64,000 nucleotides of DNA from a candidate division WOR-3 bacterium (GTDB lineage Bacteria > Hydrothermota > 32-111), in NCBI GenBank assembly GCA_037481815.1, contig JBBFKX010000002.1, forward strand, positions 169,663 to 233,662. The letters run 5' to 3'. This document shows, one piece after another, positions 2,289-34,372 of this stretch. The notes under the pieces were generated by a model. The model ran no database searches. It was not told the DNA's origin and worked only from the letters and a program-made list of their open reading frames with translations. Made by a program: the position numbers and the translations under genes. Position 1 is the first letter of the stretch. Every line of letters begins with the position of its first letter.

Positions 2289-2327
2289 TTAAAACCTCCT
2301 GAAAAAAGAGCAGAATTTTAGTTTTTC

Positions 2328-2355
2328 ATTTTATCAAAAAAAAGTTTTTTGTCAA
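2328..2355 (-). promoter_or_regulatory. Sigma-70-like promoter: TTGACA, 16-nt spacer, TAAAAT, read on the minus strand
   Basis: Reverse complement of 2328..2355 reads TTGACAaaaaacttttttttgaTAAAAT. It sits in the 108-nt gap upstream of the TPR-lipoprotein/rplM/rpsI/rpsB run. Confidence 0.4.
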
Positions 2356-2396
2356 TAGTAAGAAGAAAGAGGTATACAATAATATCTTTTTAATAA

Positions 2397-2867
2397 TTAC
2401 CGAAACAGGTTATCAATTATGTTGTCAACTTGATTTTTGAAATCTCTGTCAAAAGTTATTTTTTCATCCTCCTCTTCCTTCATAAGTTTAACTATATTCT
2501 CACTTAATTTTTTCATCATCGTTTGAACAACTCCTATTATGGTATCTTTTGAAAAAAGAGAAACTATAATTATCTCATCGTTTACTGCAAGATAAAAAAA
2601 GGAAAATTTTTTTCCTTCCTGAAAGAGTGTAAAAAAATAATCCTCTTTAACAAGTTTTGCGATACTTTTTGTTGCATTGAAAATTCCAGCACATAAGGCA
2701 CCTAACGATTGAGTGTAATAGTTATCCTTTTTCATACCCATCTGAAAAAGCACCTGACCTGCACTATTTATAATAAGAACATTCAGGACCTTTGTATCCT
2801 GAATGAATGTCTTCAAAAACCGTTCAACATCTTTGACGGTTGGCTCATCAAGAACAAGTTTTTTCAT
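2397..2867 (-). CDS. Roadblock/LC7-like (MglB-like) domain protein, divergent, 156 aa
   Basis: Residues 28-52, VLNVLIINSAGQVLFQMGMKKDNYY, then ..SLGALCAGIFNA.., resemble the Roadblock fold pattern. No P-loop. Last gene of the che/Roadblock operon. Confidence 0.45.
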   Translation of the reverse strand: MKKLVLDEPTVKDVERFLKTFIQDTKVLNVLIINSAGQVLFQMGMKKDNYYTQSLGALCAGIFNATKSIAKLVKEDYFFTLFQEGKKFSFFYLAVNDEIIIVSLFSKDTIIGVVQTMMKKLSENIVKLMKEEEDEKITFDRDFKNQVDNIIDNLFR

Positions 2868-2873
2868 AAAATT

Positions 2874-3218
2874 TTATATATTCCCCTGAAGTTGTGCTGC
2901 GATATTTTTTATTTGTATTATCAAAGCCCCAATGTTCACATTCTTTTCAGCAAGAGCAAACAGTATAAACTTTTCTTTTGAAATGAAAAGTACTTCACCT
3001 TTTTCAGTGTATATCGTTGAAAATATTGGAAGGGAGTCGGTACTCTTTCCCAAACTTTTTTCCATCTCACTGTTTATCTTTGCAACCATCGCTCCAAGCA
3101 GTTCCGCCATTTCACTTTCATAGAAAATTTTATCAACGATGAGTCCATCTTTTGTAAGAACAGCAACACCTTTAACTCCAGTTATCTCCATTATCTTCTC
3201 AATTTTCTCTTTTATCAT
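2874..3218 (-). CDS. Roadblock/LC7 domain protein (MglB-like)
   Basis: 114 aa. ITGVKGVAVLTKDGLIVDK...ELLGAMVAKINSEMEKSLG matches the Roadblock/LC7 consensus (xGVxGaxlvdxDGlxx ... laAxxaxl). Its start overlaps the upstream gene by 4 nt. Confidence 0.75.
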   Translation of the reverse strand: MIKEKIEKIMEITGVKGVAVLTKDGLIVDKIFYESEMAELLGAMVAKINSEMEKSLGKSTDSLPIFSTIYTEKGEVLFISKEKFILFALAEKNVNIGALIIQIKNIAAQLQGNI

Positions 3219-3931
3219 TGTTCAAGCACCTGTTTTATATTTTTTAACAACTGTTTCGCTTTTATAAGTATAAGACCTATCTTTACAACCTCTTCAGTGA
3301 AAATCCCCAGTATATATCCATTACCTTTAAAAAGATATATTCTGACTTTTCCAATTTCGATAAAGATCCTGTCTATCAGACCAAGATCGGTTTTACTTAT
3401 AGAATCCTCTGAAACAGAAAAAATCGTCGAAAAAAGTGCAGAGGTGATTTCAGGGTCAAGGTTTTCCAGTATCTTTGCTCTTATAACAAGGCCTGATTCT
3501 TCAATTATGATACTCCCCAAAACTCCATTTATAGAGTTTATCTCTTCAAGCGATCTGTCAAGTAAACTTTCCGCCTCATTTGCGGTTATAACATTGTCCT
3601 TTTCTATCTTTTGCAAATCTTCTTTTTTTATCTCAGAGTTTTTTGAAATCCCACCCTCTTCGACTCTCACAGGTTGTATTAAAGATCTTACCGAAGGATC
3701 ATCGGGAAATTCATTCAAAAGTTGATTCAAAACTTCTGTGGCAGATGGATCGTTCAATTCCTTTAAAGATCTATAAAGCAGAATTTTTGCATCCTTTATA
3801 TCGGGAAATTCTGAAAGAATAAGTTTACAGTAGTTTATAGTTTCGTTGAACGCTTTGTTCTTATAAAGATCCTCAGCGATCATTATAAGTAGTGAAATAC
3901 TATCCCGATCAACTTTCATTCCTTCATTCAA
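3215..3931 (-). CDS. TPR N-terminal region fused to a C-terminal Roadblock/LC7-like domain
   Basis: The N-terminal ~110 aa is TPR-like helical. The C-terminal ~110 aa (INGVLGSIIIEESGLVIRAKI...SALFSTIFSVSED..) is Roadblock-like. Overlaps the upstream gene by 8 nt. Confidence 0.55.
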   Translation of the reverse strand: MNEGMKVDRDSISLLIMIAEDLYKNKAFNETINYCKLILSEFPDIKDAKILLYRSLKELNDPSATEVLNQLLNEFPDDPSVRSLIQPVRVEEGGISKNSEIKKEDLQKIEKDNVITANEAESLLDRSLEEINSINGVLGSIIIEESGLVIRAKILENLDPEITSALFSTIFSVSEDSISKTDLGLIDRIFIEIGKVRIYLFKGNGYILGIFTEEVVKIGLILIKAKQLLKNIKQVLEQ

Positions 3932-5039
3932 ATTTACCTCCTAAAAGTTCATCAAAGATTTTTTGACACTCTTTAAGAGATTCTACAAGTTTTTCAACCT
4001 TACTCATCTGATCCGGTGTTTGGAGATTATCATAAAGAGAAATCAGTTCATCTATACTCTTCTTTACATCTCCCCTTTTAAAGTAAGCAAAAGAATTATA
4101 CTTTTTTATAAAAGGATCATCGATTCCCTCGTTTTTTGCTATCAGAGTGAACTCGTTTATTTTATCAAACTGATTAGTTGCAAAGAATGAATAAATAAGC
4201 ATTCTGTAAGCATCGAGATTTTTTGGATCCTTTTTAACATAATTTTTCAACTCGTTTATAGCTTTATCGAACAATCCATCATTGAAATAATGTTTTGCAA
4301 CATCAAAACTACTTTCCACATCACCTTTTTGAGCGCCTTCGATAATAACTATACCAAGAGTTATCATTCCATATATCAATTTTGCTATTTCAAACTCATC
4401 ACCATATTTTTCGGCGATATCTTTAATCGTGTTTTTACCATTTATCATCGAAAAAATTTCCCACTCTTTTGGTTTAAGATCCAAAAGGTCCATTTTGTCT
4501 GGATTGTCAGAGATTTTTGGAATCACCGATGAGTTTGGAATCTTTGCGGATAACCTTGACCATTCATCTATTCTTCTTGAGCCCTCCATTATCAAAGATT
4601 CGGTTTTGATTTTGAATTTGAACAGGTTGTCGAGAATGAAATTACCTTCCTCAAATTTGAAATATCCTTCTCTCCATTCAAAAAGTTTGTATATGGTATC
4701 TTCGATTCTGAGTTGTAAAAATTTTCTGAACTCGTTTTCAGTCATAATGTTCATCTTTATTATCTCTTTTGCGATTTCAACATCATCGTTTTGAATTTTG
4801 TTCATTATCCTCTGTTCATAAAATTCTTTGGTTATTTTCCCAGCTTTTATCAAAAGCAAAGGCAAAGTTATCCCTTCCATACTAACATACACAACATTCC
4901 CATTTTCAAAATAAACGTTCGCTTTTTCTTCTTTATTTGAATCTATTTTTAATATTCCACTCTTCTGATTGAAAGATAGTATCTGAAACAGATCTATGAG
5001 ATTCAGTTCACTGATTGGTCCTTCAATAGCCACATCCAC
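3924..5039 (-). CDS. DUF4388 (PATAN-like) domain protein with C-terminal TPR repeats
   Basis: N-terminus GPISELNLIDLFQILSFNQKSGILKID...VYFENGNVVYVSMEG matches the DUF4388 signature (LxDlLQxl...ktGxLxv...gxiyFxxGxivhA). The C-terminal ~120 aa are TPR-like. No nucleotide-binding motif. Confidence 0.6.
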   Translation of the reverse strand: MDVAIEGPISELNLIDLFQILSFNQKSGILKIDSNKEEKANVYFENGNVVYVSMEGITLPLLLIKAGKITKEFYEQRIMNKIQNDDVEIAKEIIKMNIMTENEFRKFLQLRIEDTIYKLFEWREGYFKFEEGNFILDNLFKFKIKTESLIMEGSRRIDEWSRLSAKIPNSSVIPKISDNPDKMDLLDLKPKEWEIFSMINGKNTIKDIAEKYGDEFEIAKLIYGMITLGIVIIEGAQKGDVESSFDVAKHYFNDGLFDKAINELKNYVKKDPKNLDAYRMLIYSFFATNQFDKINEFTLIAKNEGIDDPFIKKYNSFAYFKRGDVKKSIDELISLYDNLQTPDQMSKVEKLVESLKECQKIFDELLGGKFE

Positions 5040-5041
5040 TC

Positions 5042-7750
5042 CTATTCAAAAATTGATATCCAGTTTCTTGCTGCTTCTATCGCTTTTGCGCTCTTCTGTG
5101 CAAATTCTGATTCAGGTGAATTCTTTACAACAAAATTCCACCTTTCCATAGCTTCCTTAATATATCCTTCCTTTGCTATTATCTTTGCAAAATTGAAATT
5201 CGCTTCAGGATTTGCGGGATCTATTTTTAGAGCGTTTTGATAAGCATCCTTTGCAACATCAAAATTTTCGATCTCCTGACAGACCGAACCTATTCTTAAA
5301 AATGCTCTGAGGTTGTTTGGATCAATCTGAACAATTCTTGTATAGATCTGAATAGATTTTTCAAAATCCTCGACTAATTCATAGATCGTTGCAAGTTCCC
5401 ACAAATAACCAAGATTCTCTACATCTTTACTTATCAACGATTCAAGAATTTTGATCGATTCATCGTACATTTTCATACTTCTTAAAACTATCGCTTTTTT
5501 GTAAAGGATATCTAGATTCTCTGGATCCTTATTCAGGATTCTTTCGTATATTTCGAGTGCATCCCTATCTCTTCTCTGACTGACATATATTTCAGAGAGA
5601 TTCGTTAGAGTTTCAATATTTTCAGGATCCTTTAAAAGTATCTCACCGATAATTTTTATCGCCTCTTCAAGGTTTCCATTTTTCCAGAGTAACATCGAAT
5701 ATAGATTCAAAACATCTATTTTATTTCTATCCTTTTCAATTATCTTTGAAAGATATTCTATCGGTTCTGAATAGATCCCTTTGTTATAGAGTAGTTTGGA
5801 GAGTTTTAAAACCACTTTTTCGTTAAGAGGAGAGAGCGAAACTATTTTTCGATAATACTCTTCTGCTTCTCCATAGATCTGTTTTATATTGTAAACATCA
5901 GCGATTATTTCAAACATTTCCACATCGCACTCATCTTTTCTTACAACTTCAAAAGCACTCTGTGAAGCAAGATCATATTCACCCTTTTCAAAATATTCTT
6001 TTGCTTTTTTTCTCTTCTCCTCAAGTTGATCGACTTCCTTTAATTTAAGATCCTCTTTTTCAAAAGTATCCTCTGTTTCCTCTTCAAAAACACCTGTAAA
6101 AATATCTGAACTCTTCTCTTCTCCGATTGTGAAACCTTCTAGTTGTTCTGATGATGTAACCTGAACATCCTTTGACAGACTACCACTTATCAAAACATCC
6201 ACTTTATCTGCGTAATAGTCAAGTCCAAGTTTATATCTTGTCTCAACATAATAGGGATTAAGTTTTAATGCTTCTTTCGTATATTTGAGTGCATCCTCAT
6301 ACCTTCCAACTTTTGTTAAGGTGAAAGCAAGGTTGTAGTATGCCTCAGCGAAATTTTCATCATACTGGATCGCTTTTTCAAAAACTTTTATCGCATCCTC
6401 AAATTTTCCTTCCTCTCTATAGATTATTCCAAGATAATTGTATGTTAAAGGATAATCACCTTTTATCTCAAGAACTTTATCGATATATTTTTTCGCCTCT
6501 ATAAAATTTTTATTTTCGATAAAGATTATCGATAGATTCAAAAGAGCATCAACATAATCATCCCTTATCTGTAAAGATTTGTTAAACATTTTTAATGCTT
6601 CATCCGTCTTATTTTTATGAAGCATTGCGATTCCAAGGTTATTGTATGCCATCACATATGATGGATCCATCTTTATAGATTTATTATAACAATCTATCGC
6701 ATTTTCAAGTTCACCTTTTCTGTGAAAAGCGATACCCATATCGTTGTACGCTTTTGCTGCAAACGATTCATCTTTAAGTGCAAGTTTGTATTCCTCTATC
6801 GCTTTATCGTTTTCTCCAAGAAGAAGATAGATCTCACCGATCTGAATGTGAATCAGCGCTCGATCCGGCTCAACAGATTCAGCCTTCTTAAACTCTTTTA
6901 GCGCTTCATTGAAAAGCCCTTTGTTCCGAAAACCAATTCCAAGTGTAAAGTATGTTAAAAAACTGTTCGGTTGAATCGAAACATTCGATTCTTCCTGAAC
7001 AAAACTCTGATACATCCCCTGCTGATAAAAATCTATTCCAAGGTTTGCCTGTGTTTTTCCGTAAGCGGGATTCAACTTAATCGCTTTTTTTGTTTCCTTA
7101 ATCGCGTCATCAAAAAGCCCTTTCTCTCCATAAACAAAGCCCAAAAGAAAATGTGCTTCAGCAAGGTTGGGATCGAGTTCAAGAGCTTTTTGGAATTCTT
7201 TTATAGCAGAATCAAGTATTCCCTTGTTATAGTAAACCTCACCAAGCATCGAGTGTATTTGAGCTGAATCGGGCTGTGTTTTTAAAGCTTTTCGATACTC
7301 TTCGATCGAATCATCATACATACCTAAAGATTTATATATCTTCGCAAGGTTCAACCTCGCATCAACAAATGATGGGTTACTCTTTAAAATCTTCTTATAC
7401 TCAGCGATAGCATCAAGCGATTTTCCCATGTTGTTCAAAGCTTCTGCAAGTTTAAACCTTGTGTTCAAATCTTCGGGATTCTTTTCAAGAACTTCTCTGT
7501 ACTCTTTTATCTTTTCATCATACATCCCTGTTTCTTTGTAGATGAGTTCGAGATTCTTTTTCGCCAGGGTAAATTTCGGATCTATCGCAAGTGCTTTTTC
7601 AAGTTCTTCAATCGCTTCATCATAAAGACCTTTGTTGTAATACACAACAGCAAGATTGTTGTGTGCACCAGCATCCTTTGGATCTATCCTCTGGGCGAAC
7701 GACTTTAAAACTCTCTTTTCTGCTTCAGATATTTGAACCTGTTTTTTCAT
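5042..7750 (-). CDS. Large TPR-repeat protein, 902 aa, two TPR arrays separated by an acidic linker
   Basis: Dozens of 34-aa TPR units (..AHNNLAVVYYNKGLYDEAIEELEKALAIDPK.. and others). An acidic low-complexity linker (..EEETEDTFEKEDLKLKEVDQLEEKRKK..) splits the two arrays. Only 5 nt separate it from cheC upstream. Confidence 0.8.
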   Translation of the reverse strand: MKKQVQISEAEKRVLKSFAQRIDPKDAGAHNNLAVVYYNKGLYDEAIEELEKALAIDPKFTLAKKNLELIYKETGMYDEKIKEYREVLEKNPEDLNTRFKLAEALNNMGKSLDAIAEYKKILKSNPSFVDARLNLAKIYKSLGMYDDSIEEYRKALKTQPDSAQIHSMLGEVYYNKGILDSAIKEFQKALELDPNLAEAHFLLGFVYGEKGLFDDAIKETKKAIKLNPAYGKTQANLGIDFYQQGMYQSFVQEESNVSIQPNSFLTYFTLGIGFRNKGLFNEALKEFKKAESVEPDRALIHIQIGEIYLLLGENDKAIEEYKLALKDESFAAKAYNDMGIAFHRKGELENAIDCYNKSIKMDPSYVMAYNNLGIAMLHKNKTDEALKMFNKSLQIRDDYVDALLNLSIIFIENKNFIEAKKYIDKVLEIKGDYPLTYNYLGIIYREEGKFEDAIKVFEKAIQYDENFAEAYYNLAFTLTKVGRYEDALKYTKEALKLNPYYVETRYKLGLDYYADKVDVLISGSLSKDVQVTSSEQLEGFTIGEEKSSDIFTGVFEEETEDTFEKEDLKLKEVDQLEEKRKKAKEYFEKGEYDLASQSAFEVVRKDECDVEMFEIIADVYNIKQIYGEAEEYYRKIVSLSPLNEKVVLKLSKLLYNKGIYSEPIEYLSKIIEKDRNKIDVLNLYSMLLWKNGNLEEAIKIIGEILLKDPENIETLTNLSEIYVSQRRDRDALEIYERILNKDPENLDILYKKAIVLRSMKMYDESIKILESLISKDVENLGYLWELATIYELVEDFEKSIQIYTRIVQIDPNNLRAFLRIGSVCQEIENFDVAKDAYQNALKIDPANPEANFNFAKIIAKEGYIKEAMERWNFVVKNSPESEFAQKSAKAIEAARNWISIFE

Positions 7751-7755
7751 TCAAC

Positions 7756-8373
7756 CTACCTGTTTAAAAAATCGAGAAGTTTCTTTAAAGATATTGGATC
7801 AGGCAAAAGTATTAGATACCCTTTTAACGGATGTGGATCATCCTCAAAAGTGAACTCTGTTTCAACACAGAAAACAACATCCTTGTTCGCACTGAAATCG
7901 ATGTATGCTGAAGTTACTACAGCTGATCCTATATCAATCACAAGATTTGGAACCGATGGTAAAATCAACATGTTCAAAAAATCACTCATCGCTGTAAGAT
8001 ATGAACTTATAACTATGTTTGCAACTTCTTTGATCGCTGATTGTTCTATCTCACTTAAAATCGTTGTCGTTCCAACAGGTTTTCCCATAACCATATCGAC
8101 AAGAAGCATCGATTCATCTCTTGGAAATATCAAAAGTGTTCTACCTGTTAAATCTCCAAGAAATTTCACAAGAACACCTGTTACGATCTCGTCCTGGTTA
8201 TTGATTATCCTGTATATCTCTTCTGAAGATATTATGTGAACTTTTGGAACCGAGACCATTACTCTTTTGTTCACAAGTTGTGAAAGAACGGTCGCAGCAT
8301 GTCCTCCACCAATGTTGGAGATCTCTTTGATTCCATCCAGATGAAAATCTTTTAAGTTGTTAAAATCTATCAT
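7756..8373 (-). CDS. cheC: CheC-family CheY-P phosphatase
   Basis: 205 aa with two CheC-type motifs: DGIKEISNIGGGHAATVLSQL and SEIEQSAIKEVANIV. 3 nt downstream of cheA. Confidence 0.8.
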   Translation of the reverse strand: MIDFNNLKDFHLDGIKEISNIGGGHAATVLSQLVNKRVMVSVPKVHIISSEEIYRIINNQDEIVTGVLVKFLGDLTGRTLLIFPRDESMLLVDMVMGKPVGTTTILSEIEQSAIKEVANIVISSYLTAMSDFLNMLILPSVPNLVIDIGSAVVTSAYIDFSANKDVVFCVETEFTFEDDPHPLKGYLILLPDPISLKKLLDFLNR

Positions 8374-8376
8374 AAA

Positions 8377-10257
8377 TTACCCCTCTTTAGCCATCGAAAC
8401 AACACCTGGAACATCAACTATGAAAGATGGCATTCCGTTGTTTAAAATTGACACACCTGCAAGCCCATGAATACCTGAAAGTATTCCCTTAAGTGGCTTG
8501 ACAACTACCTCTGATTGTTCTAGGAAATTATCCACAAGTATCCCGTATAAAGAATCCTCCACTTCAACAAGAACTATGGAATATTTGTCCCTATCTTCAA
8601 CTTTTTCACATTTAAAAATTTTTGATAACCTTATAAGCGGTATTATTTGATCTCTCAATACGAAGACCTCTTTTTGCATAACCGTAAATATTTCGTTTTT
8701 GTTTATGTCTATCGTCTCCACGATGTGAGTTAAAGGTATTATATAAACTTCACCACTCACCTCGACTATCAAAGTTTTTATTATGGCGAGTGTCAAAGGA
8801 AGTTTTAAAGTGAAAACTGTTCCTTTATCTTTCTGGGACGAAATTTCAAGTGTTCCACCTATCTGTTTTAAAACATTGTAGACAGCACCAACACCCACAC
8901 CTCTTCCTGAAATATCGTTAACCTCTTCTTTGGTGGAGAAACCTTCATTCATTATCAACGAATAGATATCGTTTTCATTTAGATGTTGTAATTTTTCTTC
9001 ATCTATCAAATTTAATGACAATGCTTTTTCTATAATTTTATTTTTATCAAGTCCTTTACCATCATCTGAAACTGTTATCAAAACTCCATTTTTAACCCTT
9101 TTCGCTTCAAGTATTATCGTTCCGGTTTCATCTTTTTTATTTTTTATCCTTTCCTGTTGAGTTTCTATTCCATGATCCACAGCATTCTTCAGAAGATGAA
9201 GCAATGGATCCGCAAGGGAATTCAGAATCGCTCTATCAAGTTCAATATCTCTTCCCTTTATTATAAAATTTACTTTCTTTTTCAACCTGTTTGAAAGATC
9301 CCTGATATACCTTGGATACCTATCAAAAACCTGTCCAACTGGAACCATCCTTATCTTCATTATTTCATCCTGAATATTTGAGATTATCTTTGAAGTTGAG
9401 TTCAGAGAATTTATCAATTCTTCATTCTGTAAAGAGTATGCTATCTGTTGCAACCTCCCTCTGGCTATAACAAGTTCTGAAGCATAGTTCTGGAGATTGT
9501 CAAGGCGTTCGAGTGAAACCTTTATATCCTTTTTTTCTACAACGATTTCCTGATCACTTTTTGCTTCTTCTTTCACAAGGAAAGCATCTTTTATTTCAGG
9601 TATACCTTTAATCTCATCTATAACCTTTTCAATTTCAGTTGTATCTTTTATGTAAAGGGTGATCTCATCTTTAAAATTTTCCTTCATTATCGAATCAAAG
9701 TCCGGATCACTTTTTATGAAAATATTTCTATCCTGAAGATTTTTAATAACGACGAAAGCTCTCGCTGATTTTAAAACAACATCTTCAGAAAAAATTATTT
9801 TTATCGCTTTTTCTGATGATAGAGAAACTTTCTCTATAGGGATCTTTTTTGTTTTTACTTCCTCTATCTTTTTCGTTTCCTTAACGATCTCAGAACCTGT
9901 TTTTATAGATTCAATCACCTTTAAAAAACTTTTTATAATATTTTCATCTACATCTTTTTTATGGACAAGGGATTGTATATAATCTGTCCCCTTTAAGAGT
10001 AGGTCTATAAGTTCAGTGCTTACCTGTAATTTTTCATTTCGTATAAGATCCATAACATCTTCTATCGAATGGGAAATTTTTGTAATCGAAGAATAGCCCA
10101 TTGAAGCTGCCATACCCTTTATCGTATGCATACCCCTAAAAATCGAGTTTATTGCCTCTATATCGTTCATATCCTTTTCAAGTTTCAAAATGGAATCAGA
10201 AACCTGCTCAAGGTACTCTTCAGCTTCACTTATGAACAATTCTTCATAATTTGTCAT
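8377..10257 (-). CDS. cheA: Chemotaxis histidine kinase CheA
   Basis: 626 aa. Hpt domain (FRGMHTIKGMAASMGY), HATPase_c (LLHLLKNAVDHGIE..GRGVGVGAV) and a C-terminal CheW-like domain. Confidence 0.95.
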   Translation of the reverse strand: MTNYEELFISEAEEYLEQVSDSILKLEKDMNDIEAINSIFRGMHTIKGMAASMGYSSITKISHSIEDVMDLIRNEKLQVSTELIDLLLKGTDYIQSLVHKKDVDENIIKSFLKVIESIKTGSEIVKETKKIEEVKTKKIPIEKVSLSSEKAIKIIFSEDVVLKSARAFVVIKNLQDRNIFIKSDPDFDSIMKENFKDEITLYIKDTTEIEKVIDEIKGIPEIKDAFLVKEEAKSDQEIVVEKKDIKVSLERLDNLQNYASELVIARGRLQQIAYSLQNEELINSLNSTSKIISNIQDEIMKIRMVPVGQVFDRYPRYIRDLSNRLKKKVNFIIKGRDIELDRAILNSLADPLLHLLKNAVDHGIETQQERIKNKKDETGTIILEAKRVKNGVLITVSDDGKGLDKNKIIEKALSLNLIDEEKLQHLNENDIYSLIMNEGFSTKEEVNDISGRGVGVGAVYNVLKQIGGTLEISSQKDKGTVFTLKLPLTLAIIKTLIVEVSGEVYIIPLTHIVETIDINKNEIFTVMQKEVFVLRDQIIPLIRLSKIFKCEKVEDRDKYSIVLVEVEDSLYGILVDNFLEQSEVVVKPLKGILSGIHGLAGVSILNNGMPSFIVDVPGVVSMAKEG

Positions 10258-10260
10258 ACA

Positions 10261-10629
10261 CTATTTCAAATTTAAAACTCTGTTGACAGATTCAAGAACC
10301 CTTGATGGTTGAAAAGGTTTAACGACAAAATCTTTGGCTCCCGCCTGAATCGCCTCTACTACAAGCGATTGTTGTCCCATGGCGGAAACCATCAATATCT
10401 TTGCGTTTGGAAACTCTTTTATAATTTCCCTGACAGCATCTATACCTGACATATCAGGCATTATGATATCCATAGTTACAAGATCCGGCTGCAATTCTCT
10501 GTACATCTGCACAGCCTGAGATCCTGTCCCCGCCTCCCCACAAATTTCAAAACCTTCTTTTTTCAGAATATCTGCGATCATTCTTCTCATAAAAATTGCG
10601 TCATCAACTATAAGCACCCTTGTAGCCAT
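10261..10629 (-). CDS. cheY: Chemotaxis response regulator CheY
   Basis: 122-aa single receiver domain. MATRVLIVDDAIFMRRMI...LVTMDIIMPDMSG...MVSAMGQ...KDFVVKPF carries the conserved D-D/D/T-or-S/K positions. Confidence 0.9.
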   Translation of the reverse strand: MATRVLIVDDAIFMRRMIADILKKEGFEICGEAGTGSQAVQMYRELQPDLVTMDIIMPDMSGIDAVREIIKEFPNAKILMVSAMGQQSLVVEAIQAGAKDFVVKPFQPSRVLESVNRVLNLK

Positions 10630-10640
10630 ATTTTTTCCTC

Positions 10641-11039
10641 CTAATTTTTGTTGATAATATTTTTCAAATTTAATATTATAATCTCTTTACCATCTTTTTC
10701 AACAAAACCTTTTATATATTCACCTTCACTCTCTTCATCTTTTACCTTTGAAACGTTTATTATGCCTTCTATTTCATCTATTAGAAGGCCATACTTTTCT
10801 TTGTTTTTTTCACAGATGATTATATAATTTTCCTCAACCTTTTTCATCATTTTCAGTTTTTTCTTCAACGAGATCAAAACAACAACATCTCCCCTTAAGT
10901 TTATTACACTTTCGATATAATCTTCAGCGTTTGGAATTCTAATACCTTTTATTCTCTCATAAATATCTATTATCTCGGATATCTTTATCCCATATATTTT
11001 ACCTTCGATCTTAAACGTTATATACTGTTCATTTTCCAT
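10641..11039 (-). CDS. cheW: Chemotaxis coupling protein CheW
   Basis: 132-aa single CheW-like domain (YITFKIEGKIYGIKISEIIDI...VINLRGDVVVLISLKK). Confidence 0.85.
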   Translation of the reverse strand: MENEQYITFKIEGKIYGIKISEIIDIYERIKGIRIPNAEDYIESVINLRGDVVVLISLKKKLKMMKKVEENYIIICEKNKEKYGLLIDEIEGIINVSKVKDEESEGEYIKGFVEKDGKEIIILNLKNIINKN

Positions 11040-11043
11040 TCTG

Positions 11044-14000
11044 TTAAATCTCCTTCCATGTGAATTCTATTGGAAGAACACTCAAAGGATGCGCATAGAA
11101 ACCATGAACATCGTCATGTATCGCGATCTGCCGATAGTTGTGAGTTAAAAATACCCAGGGTGCATCATCGACAATTATTCTTTCAATATCCTGATACAAT
11201 TTATTTCTTTCTTCAAAATTAGTTGTCATCCTTGCTTTTAAAATGAGATCGTCCACCTGTTTGTTCGAGTAAAAAGAGTTGTTTCCACCATCACCAAAAC
11301 TTTCACTATGGAAAAGTGGATAAACGAAATTGTCAGGTTCACCTGTATCACCAGCCCAACCCATCATAAAAAGATCACATTTCCCGGAGTGCATCCTGTC
11401 AAGAAGTTCCACCCATTTCAAGGGAACTATTTTTATCCTGATACCTATTTCCTGCCACATACTCTGTAAGAGTTCCGCCCTCTTTATAACCCTTTCAGAA
11501 TTTGAACATATCATTTCAAAACTGTGATTTATACCGTTAGGAAAACCGGCTTTTAACATCATCTCTTTTGCTTTTGATGGATTGTAAGGATAACCTTCAA
11601 GAGATTTGTTGTAACATGGAAGTGCTGGGGGAAATACACCTTTTGAAATGATCCCGAGACCAAACATTGTTTCGTTGATGTACCTTGATTTATCGGTAGC
11701 ATAGTTTATTGCTTTTCTTATCTCTTTTGTTAATGTGATCTCATTTTTTCTTGACATGTTGAAACCAACATACTGAACATCAAGAGATGGTATCGTTAGA
11801 ACTTTTATATCAACTCTGTTCTGTTTTTTTAATTTTTCAAGATCCTCAGCGTTTACAGAACAATAATCTATGTTTTTCGCCAGGAGTTCTTCAAACTCAT
11901 CCTCTTCCCTTTTTATCTTTATTTCAACATTTTCAACAAAAGGTTCTCCTCCAAAATAATGTTTGTTGGATTCCATAAGAATCCTTTCATCATCAACATA
12001 TTTTAAAATGAATGGTCCACAACCGATGCAGTTGTTTTTCATCTTTTCATCGGAAAATTTTACCATATCCTTTTTTATTACCGCAAGACATATCACAGCA
12101 AGATTTGATAGGAATGGAATATAAGGATATTCAAGAGTAAACTTTATCGTATGTTCATCGAGTATTTCAATTCCCTCAATATCACGGGCTCTTCTTTTTA
12201 TGTAATTCTGGGCTCCCTTTATCATATTCACAAAAGGAGCGTTTGGAGTTAAAAGAACATTTTTTATGCTCTCTTTCACATCCTCTGCTGTTACAGGTGT
12301 TCCATCATGAAAGTAAGCGTTTTTTCTTAAAAAGAAAACCCACTCCGTTGCATCAGAGTTGATATGCCAGTATTTTGCAAGTGCTGGGATAACACTTGTA
12401 TCCTTTCCAAATCTCACAAGTCCAACATGGATCTGTTGTAAAACTGTATTACTCGTTGAATCACCAACGAGTGCTGGCTGCCAGTGAACGGGCAGGTTGT
12501 TCATTATGAATTTAAACCTATTCTTTTCAGGATCCCTTTTGATTATGAACTTCTCTGAAAATGTTTCCTGTATACCTGAAACCATCTTTAATGACTCTTC
12601 ACTTTTCAAAATATCATTTTTAAAAATCCTGTTAAGTTCATCAGCCATCTGGTTTATTTTTTCAGATTTTGAAATTATGTTCATGTATAGTTTGACAATC
12701 TCATCCTTTAAAATTTCCTGCTGGGTTATGGTATCGTAAATCTCTTTCAAAAGATTTTTAAAATTCACTGCTGAGTCCTTTACATCCTTTACAACCTTGT
12801 TGCTCGTTTCTATTGAGAAAATAATCTTTTCCGCAGAATCGAGTTCTTTATCAACAATGCTTAAAACATCGTGTAAAAGTTTTTCCATATTTTTTACTAT
12901 ATCTTTTATCTCAAGTGAGGCATCAGTTGCTTTTTTTATGAGTTCTTTTGTCTGTGAAACTATAACAACAAGATTCTGTTGATATTTGCCTGATCTTGCT
13001 GCCTCGATCGAAGCATAGAGAGAAAGCAATTTTGTCTGTTCTGAAAGTTCTTTCAATTCTAAACTCGTTTCAAAAATTGATTTCAAATTTTTTGAAATTT
13101 CGTTGAAATCATCTTTAAGATTGACTATCATCTCAAGTGTTTTTTCGATATCATTTTTCACATTAACTACACTCGTTGAGAACTCGTTTACTGCACCAAG
13201 GAGAAGGTTAAGATTATCCTCTATCTCTCCAACATTTTTTAGCATCAACTGTTCACTTTCCTCTATTGATTCGATGGCACCGAAATAGTTTTTAACAACC
13301 TTTGATTGTTCATCGTTTCTTTCGATGAACTCGTTTATAACTCCCATCGTTTGATCTATAATGTTTTTACTGTTTTCAAGGAAAAATTCTATCTTTTTGA
13401 AAATCTTTATCTCTGTTGCTATAGAATTATCTAATGATTTCTTTTCATAAATAAGATCTGACAGAGGTTCAAGTTGTTGCATAAGATTCGATAGTCCAAC
13501 CTTTACATCGGATTGTGTTTTAACCATTGTCATAAGTTTTTCGGTCGACTGTAAAGAAACATCAATTATATTTTGAACACTTTTGTTAAGGTCGTTGATC
13601 AGATTTTTATTTTTATCCTGTATGTTTATATATTCTTTCATCTTGTCCGACTTCAAAACAATATCAGAAAGGTTCATCTCAACATTTTTTAACCTGAAAT
13701 TCAAAAGATCTATGTTTCTTTTTAATGCATCGATTCTGAACTTAATGTTATCGACAGATTCAATAACATTTTCTGTTTTCACTTTTATGTTCTGAATACT
13801 TTCAGGAATCCTTTTTGTTAGATTGAATGTTTTGTTCGCAAGAAGAAGCATCCTGTCAGCGATAACTTCAAAACCTCTTCCACTCTCTCCAGCATGATAC
13901 GATTTTATCCCTGCGTTTCTTGCTGCCGATTCAGTCATCTGTGCTATACCAATTATGATCTCGGTTATTTGACCTATGTGTTTTGAATACTCGTTAAATG

Positions 14001-14382
14001 GTTTTACAATATCGAGAATCTGGGATGAACCACTCGTAAAAATATTCAACTGGTTTATCACCTGATCAAACTCTTTGACACTATTTTTGATACTTTCCGT
14101 TGAGTTTTTTGAATAATCTATTAAAACATCCGCAGCTTCAGAAACTATCTGTATCGAAGCGTAAAGTTTGTTTCCTTTGTCTTCAATCTTTTCTATTTCA
14201 TCAACCAATCCTTTTTCTTCAAATGAAATCGAAGAGAGTATAGAATGTGCGTTTCTGTTTATCTCAAGAAGTTCATCATCATCTATTTTTATAGTTTTCA
14301 AAGCATAGATCAGGGCTGTTGGATCAAATTCCTCTTCCTGTATTACTCCCTTTCTTTTAAAAAAATTGAAGAAAGACACCAT
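11044..14382 (-). CDS. Soluble MCP-like chemoreceptor (about 600 aa of coiled coil/MA domain) fused to a C-terminal family-5 solute-binding protein domain
   Basis: 1112 aa with no hydrophobic TM stretch. N-terminal half: a long coiled coil with an MCP-signal-like tip (HAGESGRGFEVIADRM; a second degenerate copy, ARSGKYQQNLVVIVSQTKEL). C-terminal ~490 aa: SBP_bac_5 hallmarks (VGDSTSNTVLQQIHVGLVRFGKD..IPALAKYWHINSD..FFLRKNAYFHDGTPVTAEDVKESI...YFGGEP). First gene of the che operon. Confidence 0.75.
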   Translation of the reverse strand: MVSFFNFFKRKGVIQEEEFDPTALIYALKTIKIDDDELLEINRNAHSILSSISFEEKGLVDEIEKIEDKGNKLYASIQIVSEAADVLIDYSKNSTESIKNSVKEFDQVINQLNIFTSGSSQILDIVKPFNEYSKHIGQITEIIIGIAQMTESAARNAGIKSYHAGESGRGFEVIADRMLLLANKTFNLTKRIPESIQNIKVKTENVIESVDNIKFRIDALKRNIDLLNFRLKNVEMNLSDIVLKSDKMKEYINIQDKNKNLINDLNKSVQNIIDVSLQSTEKLMTMVKTQSDVKVGLSNLMQQLEPLSDLIYEKKSLDNSIATEIKIFKKIEFFLENSKNIIDQTMGVINEFIERNDEQSKVVKNYFGAIESIEESEQLMLKNVGEIEDNLNLLLGAVNEFSTSVVNVKNDIEKTLEMIVNLKDDFNEISKNLKSIFETSLELKELSEQTKLLSLYASIEAARSGKYQQNLVVIVSQTKELIKKATDASLEIKDIVKNMEKLLHDVLSIVDKELDSAEKIIFSIETSNKVVKDVKDSAVNFKNLLKEIYDTITQQEILKDEIVKLYMNIISKSEKINQMADELNRIFKNDILKSEESLKMVSGIQETFSEKFIIKRDPEKNRFKFIMNNLPVHWQPALVGDSTSNTVLQQIHVGLVRFGKDTSVIPALAKYWHINSDATEWVFFLRKNAYFHDGTPVTAEDVKESIKNVLLTPNAPFVNMIKGAQNYIKRRARDIEGIEILDEHTIKFTLEYPYIPFLSNLAVICLAVIKKDMVKFSDEKMKNNCIGCGPFILKYVDDERILMESNKHYFGGEPFVENVEIKIKREEDEFEELLAKNIDYCSVNAEDLEKLKKQNRVDIKVLTIPSLDVQYVGFNMSRKNEITLTKEIRKAINYATDKSRYINETMFGLGIISKGVFPPALPCYNKSLEGYPYNPSKAKEMMLKAGFPNGINHSFEMICSNSERVIKRAELLQSMWQEIGIRIKIVPLKWVELLDRMHSGKCDLFMMGWAGDTGEPDNFVYPLFHSESFGDGGNNSFYSNKQVDDLILKARMTTNFEERNKLYQDIERIIVDDAPWVFLTHNYRQIAIHDDVHGFYAHPLSVLPIEFTWKEI

Positions 14383-14452
14383 ATCAAATCCTTTTTAAAA
14401 ATAAAATATAACATAATAATAAAAATAAATCAATATGGTGGATTTTGAAAAA

Positions 14453-27798: not shown

Positions 27799-28962
27799 AT
27801 GATTATTTTACAAATGAAAGAAGATAAAGGGAATATTTTTTACACTGAATTCAACTATGATAAACTCTATTGGCTGATAAATATAAGAACATTACTTTTA
27901 ATCTGTTTAACTATAATTTTTTCAATTTTATCAATATTTAAAATCAAAATAAATAACACATTTTCTCCTGAATATCTACTTTTTTGGCAGATGATAGCAC
28001 TTGTGATCAATTTTTTACTCTATATTGATCTAAAATATCTTCAAAACAATAAACACCTGATTATGAACGAGGAAAATTTTAAATATATTGGAATGATTCA
28101 AATCGATTTTGATATCCTTTATACGATAGTTACAATTTTTCTTTCAGGAGGAATAAAATCTCCACTTCTTTTTCTTTTCATTTATAACATAATCACTTCA
28201 AACTTTTTGATTCAGGATCGAAATACTTTCTTTTACACCCTTATATTAATTGTGCTGATTTTCATCTCTGAATTCAGATTTAGATTCAAGGACACATTCC
28301 CATACATAGAGTATAAAACTTTGGAAAAGTTTGAAAATATGGTCTTGATCTCACTCATATTCTTTTTCCTCTTCTACCTTTCAAAATATGTATCGGAAAA
28401 ACTGAAACAGAAACAGGAAGAGTTGAATAAACTATATCAGGAAACATACAAGTTATCAATAACTGATAGGTTGACAGGCCTTTATGATCAGACATATTTT
28501 AGAGTGAGTGCTTCTGACGCTATTGAGATCGCAAAAATCAACAACAATAAACTTGCAATTGTAATGTTTGATATCGATAATTTTAAGGAGTTCAATGATA
28601 CAAACGGACATCTTATGGGTTCACGCGCATTGGTTCAAATAGCACAGATCATGAAAAAAACTTTTAGAAAAACTGACATCCTTGGTAAATATGGAGGAGA
28701 CGAGTTTATAATACTCTTAAAAGATATAGATGAAAATTATATAACATTTGTTCTTGAGAGATTCAAAAGTCAGATAGAAAATTTTAACTTTAATCCCGAA
28801 ACATCAAGAGTTTCCCATTTGACTATTTCCATAGGTGTTTCGTTTTTTCCCAAAGATGGTGAAAACCTCGATACACTTATCGATAAAACTGATAAGGCAT
28901 TATACACTGCAAAAAATTTAGGAAAAAATAATCTATTCATTTTTGATGATAGTAAAAAGTAG
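27799..28962 (+). CDS. Membrane-anchored diguanylate cyclase (GGDEF domain)
   Basis: 387 aa. The N-terminal ~200 aa hold several hydrophobic helices. The C-terminal GGDEF domain has an intact active site (..RLTGLYDQTYF...FDIDNFKEFNDTNGH...KYGGDEFIIL..). One of only two plus-strand genes. Confidence 0.85.
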   Translation: MIILQMKEDKGNIFYTEFNYDKLYWLINIRTLLLICLTIIFSILSIFKIKINNTFSPEYLLFWQMIALVINFLLYIDLKYLQNNKHLIMNEENFKYIGMIQIDFDILYTIVTIFLSGGIKSPLLFLFIYNIITSNFLIQDRNTFFYTLILIVLIFISEFRFRFKDTFPYIEYKTLEKFENMVLISLIFFFLFYLSKYVSEKLKQKQEELNKLYQETYKLSITDRLTGLYDQTYFRVSASDAIEIAKINNNKLAIVMFDIDNFKEFNDTNGHLMGSRALVQIAQIMKKTFRKTDILGKYGGDEFIILLKDIDENYITFVLERFKSQIENFNFNPETSRVSHLTISIGVSFFPKDGENLDTLIDKTDKALYTAKNLGKNNLFIFDDSKK

Positions 28963-30423
28963 TTTTACAATATCAGGATCATAAATTTTTCCAACATTTT
29001 CGTTGAAAATTCCTTCAATATGTTTTTCAGTCAACTTAAAAATATCTTTAAAAACACAATATTCTCCAGCAACTCTAACTATTCTTGAACCAACTGGAAT
29101 TTTTTTACCGACGAGTTTGTTAAAACCAGTTCCATCATAGTTTTCGTAAAGAAATTTAATAATTTTTTGAGCATCTTCAAGCATCACAAGAGGTGCTATA
29201 ATATCAGCACCTGATACGATCGCCTGTTTTATCTCTAAAGATTTTTCAGGGTCGAAGTATGTTGGTGCATTGAAGATCTCCTTTGGTTTACTCAAAAGTC
29301 CAAGGAGATGCAAAAGAGCCGAATACTGTATATCCCTTATTTCATCTTCAGAAAGTTCCATCCTTTTTGCAATTTTTACAGAAAGTGCTGAAACTTTTTC
29401 ACTGTGTTTTTTTAAACCAGGGAATATCCTATCCTCAAGATATAAAAAGGCGATCAAGGATTCAAGATAACTTCTTCTTGAATCCTCAAAAAATTTTGCA
29501 GATGCAAGAGAATTCGTGATCACGATCCTTGCGATTTCAAAAAGAACCATTTTTTCATCTTTAATTTTCAATGAATCTATTTCAAATATAAAAACTCCTA
29601 TGATCAGTTTTCCTAAAAATATCGGCAAAGTAACCGTTGAGTTGTCCTTTATACCTTTAAGAGAGTACCCGATATTAATTTTGGAAGATTTGAAATATTC
29701 AATAAACTGGTTCCTGTTGATTTTGGTTCCAACTGGAAACTCTTTTTCAAAATTTCTTTCCTTTTTAACAACGAAATCTCCACTTTTTTCATCAAAAAGA
29801 AGAAGAACCAAAGAGTGGGGATTAAAAATCGTATCAAGTTTTTCAAAAATGTTTAAAGCGTTAGATTCAAAAGATTTGATCACAGAGATCATTTCAGAAA
29901 AAGTTTTGAGTTCTTCAATGCTTTTTAAAAGTTCTTTTAGATAATTATCAAGTTTCTCTTTCTGTTCGGATACCAATTGGTTCGTGTTTAACAGTTCCTC
30001 ATTCATTTTTTGAATGTCAGCACTCAATCTTTCTTTATCAAGTAATAATTGCCTCTTCTCATAAGCGTTTCTGATAACAAGTAACATCGTATCTGCTGTG
30101 AATGGCTTTGAGACAAAATCGTAAGCACCACTCCTGATGCATGTCATCGCAAGATTAATATCTATTGTTGCTGAGATAACGATTATAGGTGAAAAAGGAT
30201 TTTCAATCGAAAAATTTGTTATGAAGTCAAAAACATCGGTTCCTGGCAACGACAGATCCACTATTATTAGAGAATATTGATTCAAAGATAACAGATTTTT
30301 AAATTGTACCCCATCGGTTGCAATATCCACATCAACAGCATCTTTCTTTTCATACTCGATGATCTTTTTTAAAAAATTGGCTACTGTGATTTCGCCATCA
30401 GCTACTAAAATTTTTTCTTTCAT
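28933..30423 (-). CDS. Response regulator: REC + GAF-like + degenerate HD-GYP-like output domain
   Basis: 496 aa. N-terminal receiver (KILVADGEITV..LIIVDLSLPG..VISAT..SKPF), a central GAF-like region, and a C-terminal HD-superfamily domain (HSEKVSALSVKIAKRM...LLHLLGLL...YENYDGTGFNKL). Relative to the HD-GYP consensus HD..GYP, it reads H-L and G-F-N. Converges on the GGDEF gene with a 30-nt overlap. Confidence 0.65.
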   Translation of the reverse strand: MKEKILVADGEITVANFLKKIIEYEKKDAVDVDIATDGVQFKNLLSLNQYSLIIVDLSLPGTDVFDFITNFSIENPFSPIIVISATIDINLAMTCIRSGAYDFVSKPFTADTMLLVIRNAYEKRQLLLDKERLSADIQKMNEELLNTNQLVSEQKEKLDNYLKELLKSIEELKTFSEMISVIKSFESNALNIFEKLDTIFNPHSLVLLLFDEKSGDFVVKKERNFEKEFPVGTKINRNQFIEYFKSSKINIGYSLKGIKDNSTVTLPIFLGKLIIGVFIFEIDSLKIKDEKMVLFEIARIVITNSLASAKFFEDSRRSYLESLIAFLYLEDRIFPGLKKHSEKVSALSVKIAKRMELSEDEIRDIQYSALLHLLGLLSKPKEIFNAPTYFDPEKSLEIKQAIVSGADIIAPLVMLEDAQKIIKFLYENYDGTGFNKLVGKKIPVGSRIVRVAGEYCVFKDIFKLTEKHIEGIFNENVGKIYDPDIVKLLFTIIKNE

Positions 30424-30424
30424 T

Positions 30425-33400: not shown

Positions 33401-34372
33401 TTTCTCTGTAATGTCCTCTATCAGAATAACAACCCCAACACATCTTCCATTCTCTATCAAAGGATAACCATAAAGGTTTTGAACAAGTTCTTTTTTTAAC
33501 CTTGTGGAATACCTCTTAACTCCAAGCATTCTTCTCGTCTTTTTTGTCTCTATTATCTCTGCAAGTATTTTATCGAGTTTCAATTCAAGTAGATCAGGGA
33601 AAAGATCGAAAATATTTTTTCCGATCATTTCAGAGTTGGTGAACTTATATTTTTCCGCTGTGAATTTGTTGAACTTGATTATATTCCCTTCTCTGTCCAG
33701 AACAATTATCCCCTGTGCAATAGCATCAAAGACAAGATTCTGAATCCTTTTTAAACCTTCTATCTCTTTTGTCCATATCTCCTTTTCCTTGAGATCATAA
33801 ATTATTACTATGGAATAATCTTCCCACGGAAAAATACTAACCTTTACAGAGCTGGCATTCCCATTTATATCGTACATTTCTATAAAAAGTTCCTGTTTGG
33901 TCTTCTTTTTCAGCGATACTATCGTTTTTTCAAGATGGTCTGGTAAAACATATTCACTAAAATATGTTGCATTACCTAAATATGTATCTCCATATTTTAT
34001 CTGAAACGATTGGTTTGAAAGTATAACCTTTAAATCTTTATCAAGAAAACATACAGAAGAATCTATACTATCAAGGAGTTCTGCAAGGAGGTATATGTCC
34101 ATTATGGATGAAGTGTTCACTTCACTTTTTAAAAATATGATGATCTTTTCATAGTTTGGAAAATTAAAATAAATATATTCACCAGAAGAATTATATGAGA
34201 AAATATCCTTTTTAAATTTTACCGATGATAAAAATTTTTTTATATCAAAATCTTTTTCAACGAATTTCTCTTTCCGGTAATCGGATACCACTCTTCCATC
34301 ATAGGTTGACAAAATGAATGAAATATTTTTTAATTTTAAAAAATCAAGAAAAGATGTTAAAACATTTCTCAT
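30425..34372 (-). CDS. Large soluble multi-sensor (PAS/GAF) histidine kinase
   Basis: 1315 aa with no evident TM. Several PAS-like and GAF-like segments ([23 protein letters not shown]..). C-terminal HisKA ([15 protein letters not shown]) and HATPase_c ([23 protein letters not shown]). Ends 2 nt from the start of the response-regulator gene. Confidence 0.85.

Follow-up and report, generated by a model that had tools for sequence, protein, structure and literature searches.

Our analysis of a 64,000-nucleotide stretch of DNA from a candidate division WOR-3 bacterium (hereafter, the window) indicates that a ten-gene chemosensory operon encoded on its minus strand at positions 2397-14382 is the upstream half of a widely conserved Che-Mgl supercluster, in which a chemosensory (Che) core is joined to TPR, PATAN (DUF4388) and Roadblock/LC7 proteins and to the genes of the MglB/MglA polarity switch. 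By analogy with the Frz pathway of Myxococcus xanthus, we consider it moderately probable that this half-cluster is part of a Frz-like pathway wired directly to an MglA/MglB switch governing type IV pili. With a confidence just short of even, we further propose an undescribed class of chemosensory pathway, found mainly in Gemmatimonadota, WOR-3 and Edwardsbacteria, whose dedicated, hard-wired output would be the MglA/MglB switch and whose constant parts would be the physical connectors between Che proteins and a Ras-like GTPase. The constant parts, which on this reading have no counterpart in the Myxococcus model, are a large all-TPR protein (TPR900), two PATAN-TPR proteins (the second being called PATAN2), a pair formed by a TPR-Roadblock fusion and a Roadblock protein, and a tandem DnaA-type AAA+ protein.

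A scan of one genome per species for the PATAN-TPR protein returned at least 592 matching stretches. The best 80 loci, 9 of them WOR-3/TA06-like and 71 from other groups, mostly labelled Gemmatimonadota, provide the conservation counts given here, for which their open reading frames (ORFs) were labelled with the window proteins and the proteins of three relatives. PATAN-TPR homologues (89, of ~375 amino acids, aa) were found in WOR-3, Stahlbacteria, Edwardsbacteria, Gemmatimonadota and Krumholzibacteriota. The full cluster, mainly from Gemmatimonadota but also present in Edwardsbacteria, has the order cheW-cheY-cheA-cheC-TPR900-PATAN/TPR-TPR/Robl-Robl-mglB-mglA-(tandem DnaA-type AAA+)-(PATAN2, a 2xPATAN-TPR protein)-cheR-cheD-cheB. 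In loci outside WOR-3, CheA and CheC are encoded upstream in 37/37 cases, MglA and MglB downstream in 53 of 54, with mglA directly after the third Roadblock gene (mglB), and in 38 of 39 cases the genes for the AAA+ protein, PATAN2 and CheR come still further downstream. In Gemmatimonadota and Edwardsbacteria, the gene that follows the third Roadblock is a bona fide mglA: its products match M. xanthus MglA with E values of 1e-79 and 1e-86, and its homologues bear the name "gliding-motility protein MglA" in databases. That the genes are orthologous across phyla is supported by the identities between the window proteins and those of a complete Gemmatimonadales chromosome (CheY 74%, CheC 44%, CheA 35%, TPR900 31% over 750 aa, PATAN 28%, MglB 27%), and a TPR900 orthologue of 896-919 aa occupies the equivalent position in Gemmatimonadota and Edwardsbacteria loci.

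The WOR-3 version of the cluster is equally regular. Among the WOR-3/TA06-like loci with enough flanking sequence, CheA, CheC and TPR900 lie upstream of the PATAN gene in 8/8 and the Roadblocks downstream in 7/7, and the ten-gene order is intact in all those with enough sequence, at PATAN identities of 50-96%. By contrast, the flanks vary with the WOR-3 lineage: on the upstream side there are SufBD, radical-SAM or HAD genes, on the downstream side NHL/ABC, RF-1/AspRS or TPR-lipoprotein/rplM genes. The arrangement of the ten genes is conserved far beyond chance. In the window, the ten ORFs lie exactly where an earlier note on this DNA had placed them, and Pfam profiles agree with each domain type that it had listed, including the Roadblock and DUF4388 assignments for 2397..5039, which all score above the Pfam cut-offs. 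The gaps between consecutive genes, from the receptor gene to mglB, are 4, 11, 3, 3, 5, 2, -8, -4 and 6 nucleotides (nt), so that the same note's description of gaps of at most 10 nt or overlaps holds for all but one of them, the 11 nt between cheW and cheY. That the ten genes behave as one conserved unit is supported by these tight or overlapping junctions, by the synteny between variable flanks and by purifying selection, which is strong on all ten genes: their ratios of non-synonymous to synonymous substitution (dN/dS) are 0.002-0.083 against two relatives at ~88-90% identity, with dS saturated. The receptor gene is preceded by a 70-nt AT-rich intergenic region (14383..14452, minus strand) that contains AAAGGA as ribosome-binding site and, at 14433..14405, a promoter-like site, a match to consensus only. 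Of the promoter-like sites in the region, the best (TTGACA-16-TAAAAT with TG, 2355..2328) lies in the 108-nt spacer (2289..2396, minus strand) that ends the block 3' of mglB and would serve the downstream TPR-lipoprotein/rplM/rpsI genes.

The link from the Che core to the polarity switch would be carried by the last gene of the block. The third Roadblock protein (156 aa; 2397..2867, minus strand; Pfam Robl_LC7, 32.8 bits against a cut-off of 23) is a full-length MglB orthologue, for which a GTPase-activating protein (GAP) activity can be predicted. Its top matches among sequences of the Protein Data Bank (PDB) are M. xanthus MglB chains (6izw_B, 6h5b_B, 6hjm; E ~3e-13, residues 14-155), followed by Thermus thermophilus MglB. 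It also matches the NCBIfam model "GTPase-activating protein MglB" (NF052242) over its full length with an E value of 4.6e-14 and 52.8 bits, under the equivalog cut-off of 200, which fits a distant orthologue rather than a close equivalog. In M. xanthus, residues 147-157 of MglB form a C-terminal helix that binds an allosteric pocket of MglA in the 6IZW complex and is required for correct polarity (PMC6785124). Residues 145-155 of the window protein (VDNIIDNLF), at the end of an acidic C-terminal helix terminating in IDNLF, align with this MglA-docking element, which has been retained: the motif is kept in every orthologue examined, and the gene evolves with a dN/dS of 0.04-0.08. The junction between the Che core and a Roadblock module described in the earlier note is borne out, and the module is of the MglB type.

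No MglA-like GTPase was detected in the 64-kb window by phmmer, P-loop scan or tblastn, and none was called in the ~7 kb beyond its start that are covered by one of the surveyed loci (L001). In WOR-3-like loci, mglA follows the block in 0/7 cases, and cheR, PATAN2 or AAA+ genes in 0/6. A decayed mglA after mglB was also considered and rejected, as neither the 108-nt spacer nor tblastn showed any remnant. A search with an Edwardsbacteria MglA gave no WOR-3 match among its best 120. We then surveyed 120 matches in a metagenome collection to a back-translated DRTLFFDFLP motif, written in the codons preferred by the window genome so as to find MglAs of low G+C content, and recovered a clade whose MglAs have 197 aa; NCBI assigns two of these to WOR-3. 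Their locus consists of accB, a PilT-like T2SSE ATPase gene, accC, mglA, a DnaA-type AAA+ gene, PATAN2-TPR, cheR, cheD, cheB and a TPR gene, with a divergently transcribed paralogue of the window receptor gene adjoining (28-30% protein identity over 1100 aa), and contains exactly what the window operon lacks with respect to the full cluster. In L210 (7072-9995; same layout in L215 and L217) the PilT-like ATPase gene lies between accB (biotin carboxyl carrier) and accC (biotin carboxylase), with mglA directly after accC, so that motility genes oddly interrupt a pair devoted to fatty-acid biosynthesis.

A second arrangement was found in a locus (L115) with the layout pilN-pilO-pilP-pilQ ... efp-pilT-mglA, in which the MglA (P0337), bearing the UniRef name of a WOR-3 MglA, is encoded directly downstream of pilT and is followed by a degenerate DnaA-like ORF. 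The tetranucleotide composition of this locus correlates at 0.977 with that of the window outside the operon, as compared with 0.973-0.990 for same-lineage controls and at most 0.945 for the other loci in the comparison, which were of at least 5 kb with G+C no higher than 42%. P0337 is 71.5% identical to another MglA, MDY6788091.1, whose accession is 178 apart from that of a first-locus PATAN protein, MDY6787913.1; both are labelled "MAG: candidate division WOR-3", a metagenome-assembled genome (MAG), and we infer that they come from one assembly. Linking the two loci by shared sample did not succeed, since protein P0008 comes from samples other than those of the second-locus MglAs, and the second-locus assemblies (GCA_964392665.1, GCA_030633565.1, GCA_023132615.1) are not among the species-representative genomes that gave first-locus loci. 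Together, composition, accession proximity and related lineages make it likely that mglA lies elsewhere in the genome of the window. In WOR-3 the cluster is split, with mglA at a separate locus beside a PilT-type ATPase gene, followed in one clade by the AAA+, PATAN2 and cheRDB genes, and the GTPase would be missing from the window because of this split rather than of a GTPase-free design. The earlier note's remark that no GTPase is encoded therefore stands for the window and probably not for the system, given the homologous clusters, the second WOR-3 locus and the conserved helix of MglB; of the alternatives that it offered, an MglA-like GTPase encoded elsewhere is the one favoured by the second locus and the helix.

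The upstream genes of the operon encode a complete signalling core. The first (11044..14382, minus strand) was described in the earlier note as MCP-like, which is correct and can be made more specific: its 1112-aa product combines an N-terminal MCP signalling region (Pfam MCPsignal, 4.4e-29, in two stretches) with a C-terminal family-5 solute-binding domain of the DppA/OppA/NikA-like type (SBP_bac_5, 5.3e-81; NCBIfam DppA-like, 1.3e-66). No transmembrane-like hydropathy window and no signal peptide were found in it, and the lack of a membrane segment predicts a soluble, cytoplasmic receptor. Motifs resembling a receptor hairpin tip occur at residues ~150-180 (GESGRGFEVIADRM) and 445-490 (LYASIEAARSG). 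This fusion is the first gene of the operon in all WOR-3-like loci and, among the loci surveyed, is confined to them, where it occurs at both the che and the mglA locus. It is followed on the same strand by genes for CheW (10641..11039; Pfam CheW, 3e-25), the single-domain response regulator CheY (10261..10629; Response_reg, 6.8e-31), CheA (8377..10257), with its five Pfam domains (P1 Hpt, P2, P3 dimerisation, P4 ATPase and P5 CheW-like), and CheC (7756..8373), a predicted CheY-P phosphatase (Pfam CheC, 4.8e-21; NCBIfam Thermotogales-type CheC, 3.7e-52, under the equivalog cut-off). CheY has the expected acceptor-site residues (DD, D54, S82, K104) and CheA its phosphorylation motif (HTIKG). 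As Pfam detected no Response_reg domain in CheA, the sole receiver of the operon is CheY, which appears to be the phosphorylatable output of the core; the earlier assertion that the operon has no REC output was mistaken, because a canonical CheY with its phospho-site, and a CheA with its own, are encoded within it. Pfam found neither CheR nor CheB in the operon.

The proteins encoded between the Che core and MglB, all on the same strand, are candidate connectors. TPR900 (902 aa; 5042..7750) consists of two TPR blocks separated by an acidic linker, with matches to TPR families down to E values of 1e-99, and is presumed to be a scaffold or effector; it was rejected as a homologue of SgmX, because it scores only 65 bits with the NCBIfam SgmX model (cut-off 1800), and MamA, PilW and Tgl-type TPR models score better. 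The PATAN-TPR protein (3924..5039) matches Pfam DUF4388/PatA_N (PF14332) with an E value of 7.6e-27 and 94.2 bits against a cut-off of 25, and Pfam detected no receiver domain in it, its C-terminus being TPR. In its AlphaFold2 model (predicted local distance difference test, pLDDT, 88), a PATAN core bearing an alpha-clip is followed by a small helical, winged-helix-like domain and three to four C-terminal TPRs. In fold searches this model matched TPR structures only, and its TPR part resembles peptide-binding TPR modules, which fits an adaptor role. The TPR-Roadblock fusion (3215..3931; Robl_LC7, 4.8e-08, 33.1 bits against a cut-off of 23, plus TPR_19) overlaps the PATAN gene by 8 nt, and the solved structures closest to it belong to generic Roadblock proteins of archaeal type rather than to MglB or MglC. 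It is in turn overlapped by 4 nt by the gene for a minimal, 114-aa Roadblock protein (2874..3218; Robl_LC7, 1.9e-07, 31.1 bits), whose orthologue profile matches generic Roadblock/dynein LC7 proteins at 1e-14 to 1e-9 and MglB at only 1e-3. An identification of these two extra Roadblocks as MglC found no support, since neither the single sequences nor the profile matched an MglC-named chain among PDB sequences at E values up to 1; a structure of MglC is deposited there.

Several observations from the survey touch the downstream half of the cluster and its variants. The tandem DnaA-type AAA+ protein has 570-650 aa and two DnaA-type AAA+ ATPase domains (L005, 13553-15280; L068, 13507-15387; L210, 10597-12498), and that of L068 matches Bac_DnaA at 3.9e-107; the ORF at the same position in L173 has an apparently degenerate Walker A motif. 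In a WOR-3 sublineage whose PATAN is ~62% identical to that of the window, a 184-aa hydrophobic protein with no Pfam match is encoded between mglB and the TPR-lipoprotein gene (L226, 12585-13139; also L227-L229), the position where other phyla have mglA; it was discarded as a GTPase, being a membrane protein unrelated to MglA. A Krumholzibacteriota locus (L004, GCA_034520215.1, 720-11125) has the order cheR-mcp-cheW-cheD-cheB-cheA-cheC-cheY-TPR(605 aa)-PATAN/TPR, with no Roadblock or mglA genes within 10 kb downstream, implying that the TPR/PATAN pair travels with the Che core even without Roadblocks nearby. In four metagenome contigs, a PATAN-TPR gene is paired with a short MglA paralogue, which it precedes in L093, L116 and L191 (204 aa where complete) and follows in L165 (216 aa), a recurrent PATAN-GTPase pairing with no MglB detected nearby.

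The system could work as follows. The cytoplasmic receptor would sense a peptide-like or metal ligand through its solute-binding domain and control CheA through CheW; CheA would phosphorylate CheY, and CheC would reset CheY-P. CheY-P might then act on the co-expressed TPR900 scaffold, the PATAN-TPR protein and the probable TPR-Roadblock/Roadblock pair, which would position or gate MglB and so set the pole at which MglA-GTP accumulates. In Myxococcus, MglB is both a GAP and an allosteric regulator of MglA and marks the rear pole together with MglC and RomR, a polarity that Frz inverts (PMC6785124, PMC10329633) by acting on the MglA/MglB/MglC/RomR module (PMC10329633), and MglA-GTP stimulates type IV pili through an MglA effector, the TPR protein SgmX (PMC7519303, PMC7668184). 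In the PatA-type regulators of cyanobacteria, the output domain is PATAN, which binds PilB1 and PilC. MglA-GTP, together with a PATAN domain contacting the pilus motor, might accordingly decide where type IV pili extend or retract. CheR, CheD and CheB, encoded with mglA, would provide adaptation, and the outcome would be a chemosensory control of twitching direction analogous to the action of Frz on MglA/MglB in Myxococcus.

Among the alternatives, the one that fares best, although we regard it as rather unlikely, is a functional Che-Mgl unit with an output other than pilus polarity, such as gliding, motility linked to the type IX secretion system (T9SS), cell division, chromosome-linked polarity or development. 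Many non-flagellar chemosensory systems regulate outputs other than motility. The constant presence of a tandem DnaA-type AAA+ protein in the full cluster suggests cell division or chromosome-linked polarity, predation is among the processes that MglA controls in other species, and the window encodes a protein with a T9SS sorting domain. However, in both WOR-3 arrangements at most one gene separates mglA from a PilT-type ATPase gene, in L115 mglA also lies within a few genes of pilNOPQ, and the PATAN domains of cyanobacteria bind PilB and PilC. The window itself has the type IV pilus genes that the earlier note reported, namely a prepilin peptidase (A24; 56547-57329, minus strand) and two N_methyl pilins (59866-60288 and 60408-60809), along with a PilR-like sigma-54 activator (62058-63410).

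Clearly less probable is a GTPase-free module, in which the sublineage of the window would have lost mglA and the Roadblock, PATAN and TPR proteins would relay the CheY signal to the pilus motor or another NTPase. The absence of MglA from the window and its neighbourhood and from the seven WOR-3-like copies agrees with such a module, as does the fact that no MglA traceable to GCA_039804205.1, the MAG to which the window was assigned (contig JBDRZY010000003.1), or to TA06 32_111 occurs in the best 120 matches of two MglA searches, an absence that proves little because only those best matches were listed. Orphan MglB homologues are common (328/749), none of them characterised according to a survey (PMC4316618). 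Nevertheless, the C-terminal helix of MglB has been kept, under purifying selection, across lineages whose PATAN has diverged to ~50% identity; WOR-3 MAGs do encode MglA, one of them seems to hold both a first-locus PATAN and an MglA, and the pilT-mglA locus bears the tetranucleotide signature of the lineage of the window. Least probable, and indeed improbable, are two unrelated neighbouring units with no signalling link, an ordinary chemotaxis operon, flagellar or otherwise, and an independent Roadblock/PATAN operon: flagellar systems of type F1 typically have CheC and a CheA with a P2 domain, and promoter-like matches exist inside the block, though at chance density (58 found against 54.6 expected), but the cheC/TPR900 gap is only 5 nt with no terminator-like site there, the cheA-cheC-TPR900-PATAN junction is conserved in the WOR-3-like and Gemmatimonadota loci surveyed, the Krumholzibacteriota order keeps the che-to-TPR/PATAN link, no flagellar genes were found in the window, and cheR-cheD-cheB on the far side of mglA make the che genes bracket the polarity genes.

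The reading that we prefer, a Frz-like pathway acting through MglA/MglB on type IV pili, has its own difficulties. No CheY-binding domain was recognisable in any protein encoded downstream of the Che core, which itself, with its CheC and P2-bearing CheA, resembles the flagellar-type systems of Firmicutes and Thermotogae. TPR900 is not SgmX, as its 65 bits indicate, the two middle Roadblock proteins have no specific MglC similarity among PDB sequences at E values up to 1, and the AAA+ partner of the full cluster lacks an explained role. Finally, no mglA was found for GCA_039804205.1 itself, and the link to mglA comes from composition, accession proximity and related lineages. The interpretation given in the earlier note is supported as to the conserved unit and the Che-Roadblock junction, its alternative of a GTPase encoded elsewhere is favoured, the lack of a GTPase output as a special feature is not supported, and the absence of a receiver is wrong.

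Other genes of the window are of interest in their own right. A DUF4416 gene directly follows that of the prepilin peptidase with a 4-nt overlap (56032-57329, minus strand), and the pilin-like and PilR-like genes lie 2.5-6 kb further on. A cyclic di-GMP and two-component cluster (27799-34372) comprises a GGDEF cyclase whose membrane domain, of six helices, is PilS-like (27799-28962, plus strand), a receiver-HD_5 protein, possibly an HD-GYP-type phosphodiesterase (28933-30423, minus strand), and a 1315-aa PAS/GAF histidine kinase (30425-34372, minus strand). The 881-aa protein encoded at 48170-50815 (minus strand) has a Peptidase_C39-like domain and a Por_Secre_tail domain for C-terminal sorting by type IX secretion, which implies a T9SS in this WOR-3 bacterium. 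The G+C content of the window is ~33%; nearly all its genes lie on the minus strand and the cumulative GC skew drops monotonically over 1-64000, which fits a single replichore with strong gene-strand bias.

The route from Frz to MglA/MglB in Myxococcus, where the genes are unlinked, is still only partly understood after years of genetics. Here, in dozens of species that represent three or more groups of phylum rank, mglB and mglA lie between che genes, accompanied by an invariable set of genes for TPR, PATAN, Roadblock and AAA+ proteins, offering a short, testable list of candidate connector proteins from Che to the GTPase and suggesting that Che-to-small-GTPase signalling is not a myxobacterial peculiarity. 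We know of no cultured members of WOR-3, and Gemmatimonas and its relatives would be culturable hosts for testing. For WOR-3, the prediction is a directed twitching under the command of a cytoplasmic receptor whose binding domain recognises peptides or metals. A hard-wired Che-Mgl cluster with constant extra parts may be a useful and somewhat surprising lead for specialists of bacterial polarity. We found no paper on the che-PATAN-Roadblock-mglBA cluster among open-access papers and bioRxiv preprints, so that the earlier note's view of the arrangement as uncharacterised seems right for the cluster as a whole, which is apparently undescribed, and less so for its familiar parts, the association of PATAN with Roadblock having been known since 2006 (PMC4316618).

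A genomic link of PATAN with MglB and with group 1/5 MglA has been described (Makarova et al. 2006; Wuichet and Sogaard-Andersen 2014, PMC4316618), as have group 1 MglAs of which some are coupled to two MglB-family genes and the presence of group 1 MglA in Gemmatimonadetes (PMC4316618). In the passages of these surveys that concern it the association is occasional, with no mention of che, TPR900, AAA+ or a fixed order, whereas the cluster described here keeps one order over ~16 genes across dozens of species. The mglB of the window does not lie within four genes of an mglA ("coupled" in the sense of Wuichet and Sogaard-Andersen), whereas its orthologue does in 53/54 non-WOR-3 loci. Cyanobacterial PatA-type (PATAN-REC) regulators of the Tax/Pix/Pil systems likewise have PATAN inside a chemosensory cluster, which there controls type IV pilus movement. 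They nevertheless combine PATAN with REC, as opposed to PATAN with a small helical domain and TPRs here, where phosphorylation must reach a PATAN without receiver indirectly, and they lack the coupling to Roadblock and MglA/MglB proteins. The actinobacterial conservons (CvnA-D) also encode a sensor kinase pathway together with a Roadblock protein and an output GTPase of the MglA family (PMC4316618), but their histidine kinase is a membrane protein, their MglA belongs to group 2, and they include DUF742 and no Che, PATAN or TPR proteins; the window block was rejected as a conservon, since Pfam detected no CvnA-type kinase, DUF742 or group 2 MglA in the operon. SgmX and Bdellovibrio Bd2492 provide precedents for large all-TPR proteins of the cytoplasm with a genetic connection to MglA and pili, which TPR900 resembles by role only, its SgmX score being no better than those of many unrelated TPR families.

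The closest comparison is with Frz and the MglA/MglB/MglC/RomR module of M. xanthus, which share with the system described here a cytoplasmic MCP, CheW, CheA, a CheY-type output, an MglB with an MglA-binding C-terminal helix, extra Roadblock paralogues and a presumed target, the control of type IV pili at the leading pole. The window operon differs by the absence of a FrzE-type CheA-REC fusion and of a FrzZ dual-receiver output, and no RomR, RomX or RomY was seen in the cluster; its two extra Roadblocks are not detectably MglC, and it lacks CheR and CheB (FrzF and FrzG in Myxococcus), which the full cluster encodes at its distal end and which WOR-3 has at its second locus. With respect to Frz it has in addition CheC, TPR900, PATAN-TPR and the TPR-Roadblock fusion, to which the full version adds the tandem DnaA-type AAA+ protein. 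Moreover, frz and mglBA are separate loci in Myxococcus, linked by genetics, whereas here they correspond to one cluster. By analogy, the system of the window would work like Frz plus MglA/MglB, but it is not a Frz system.

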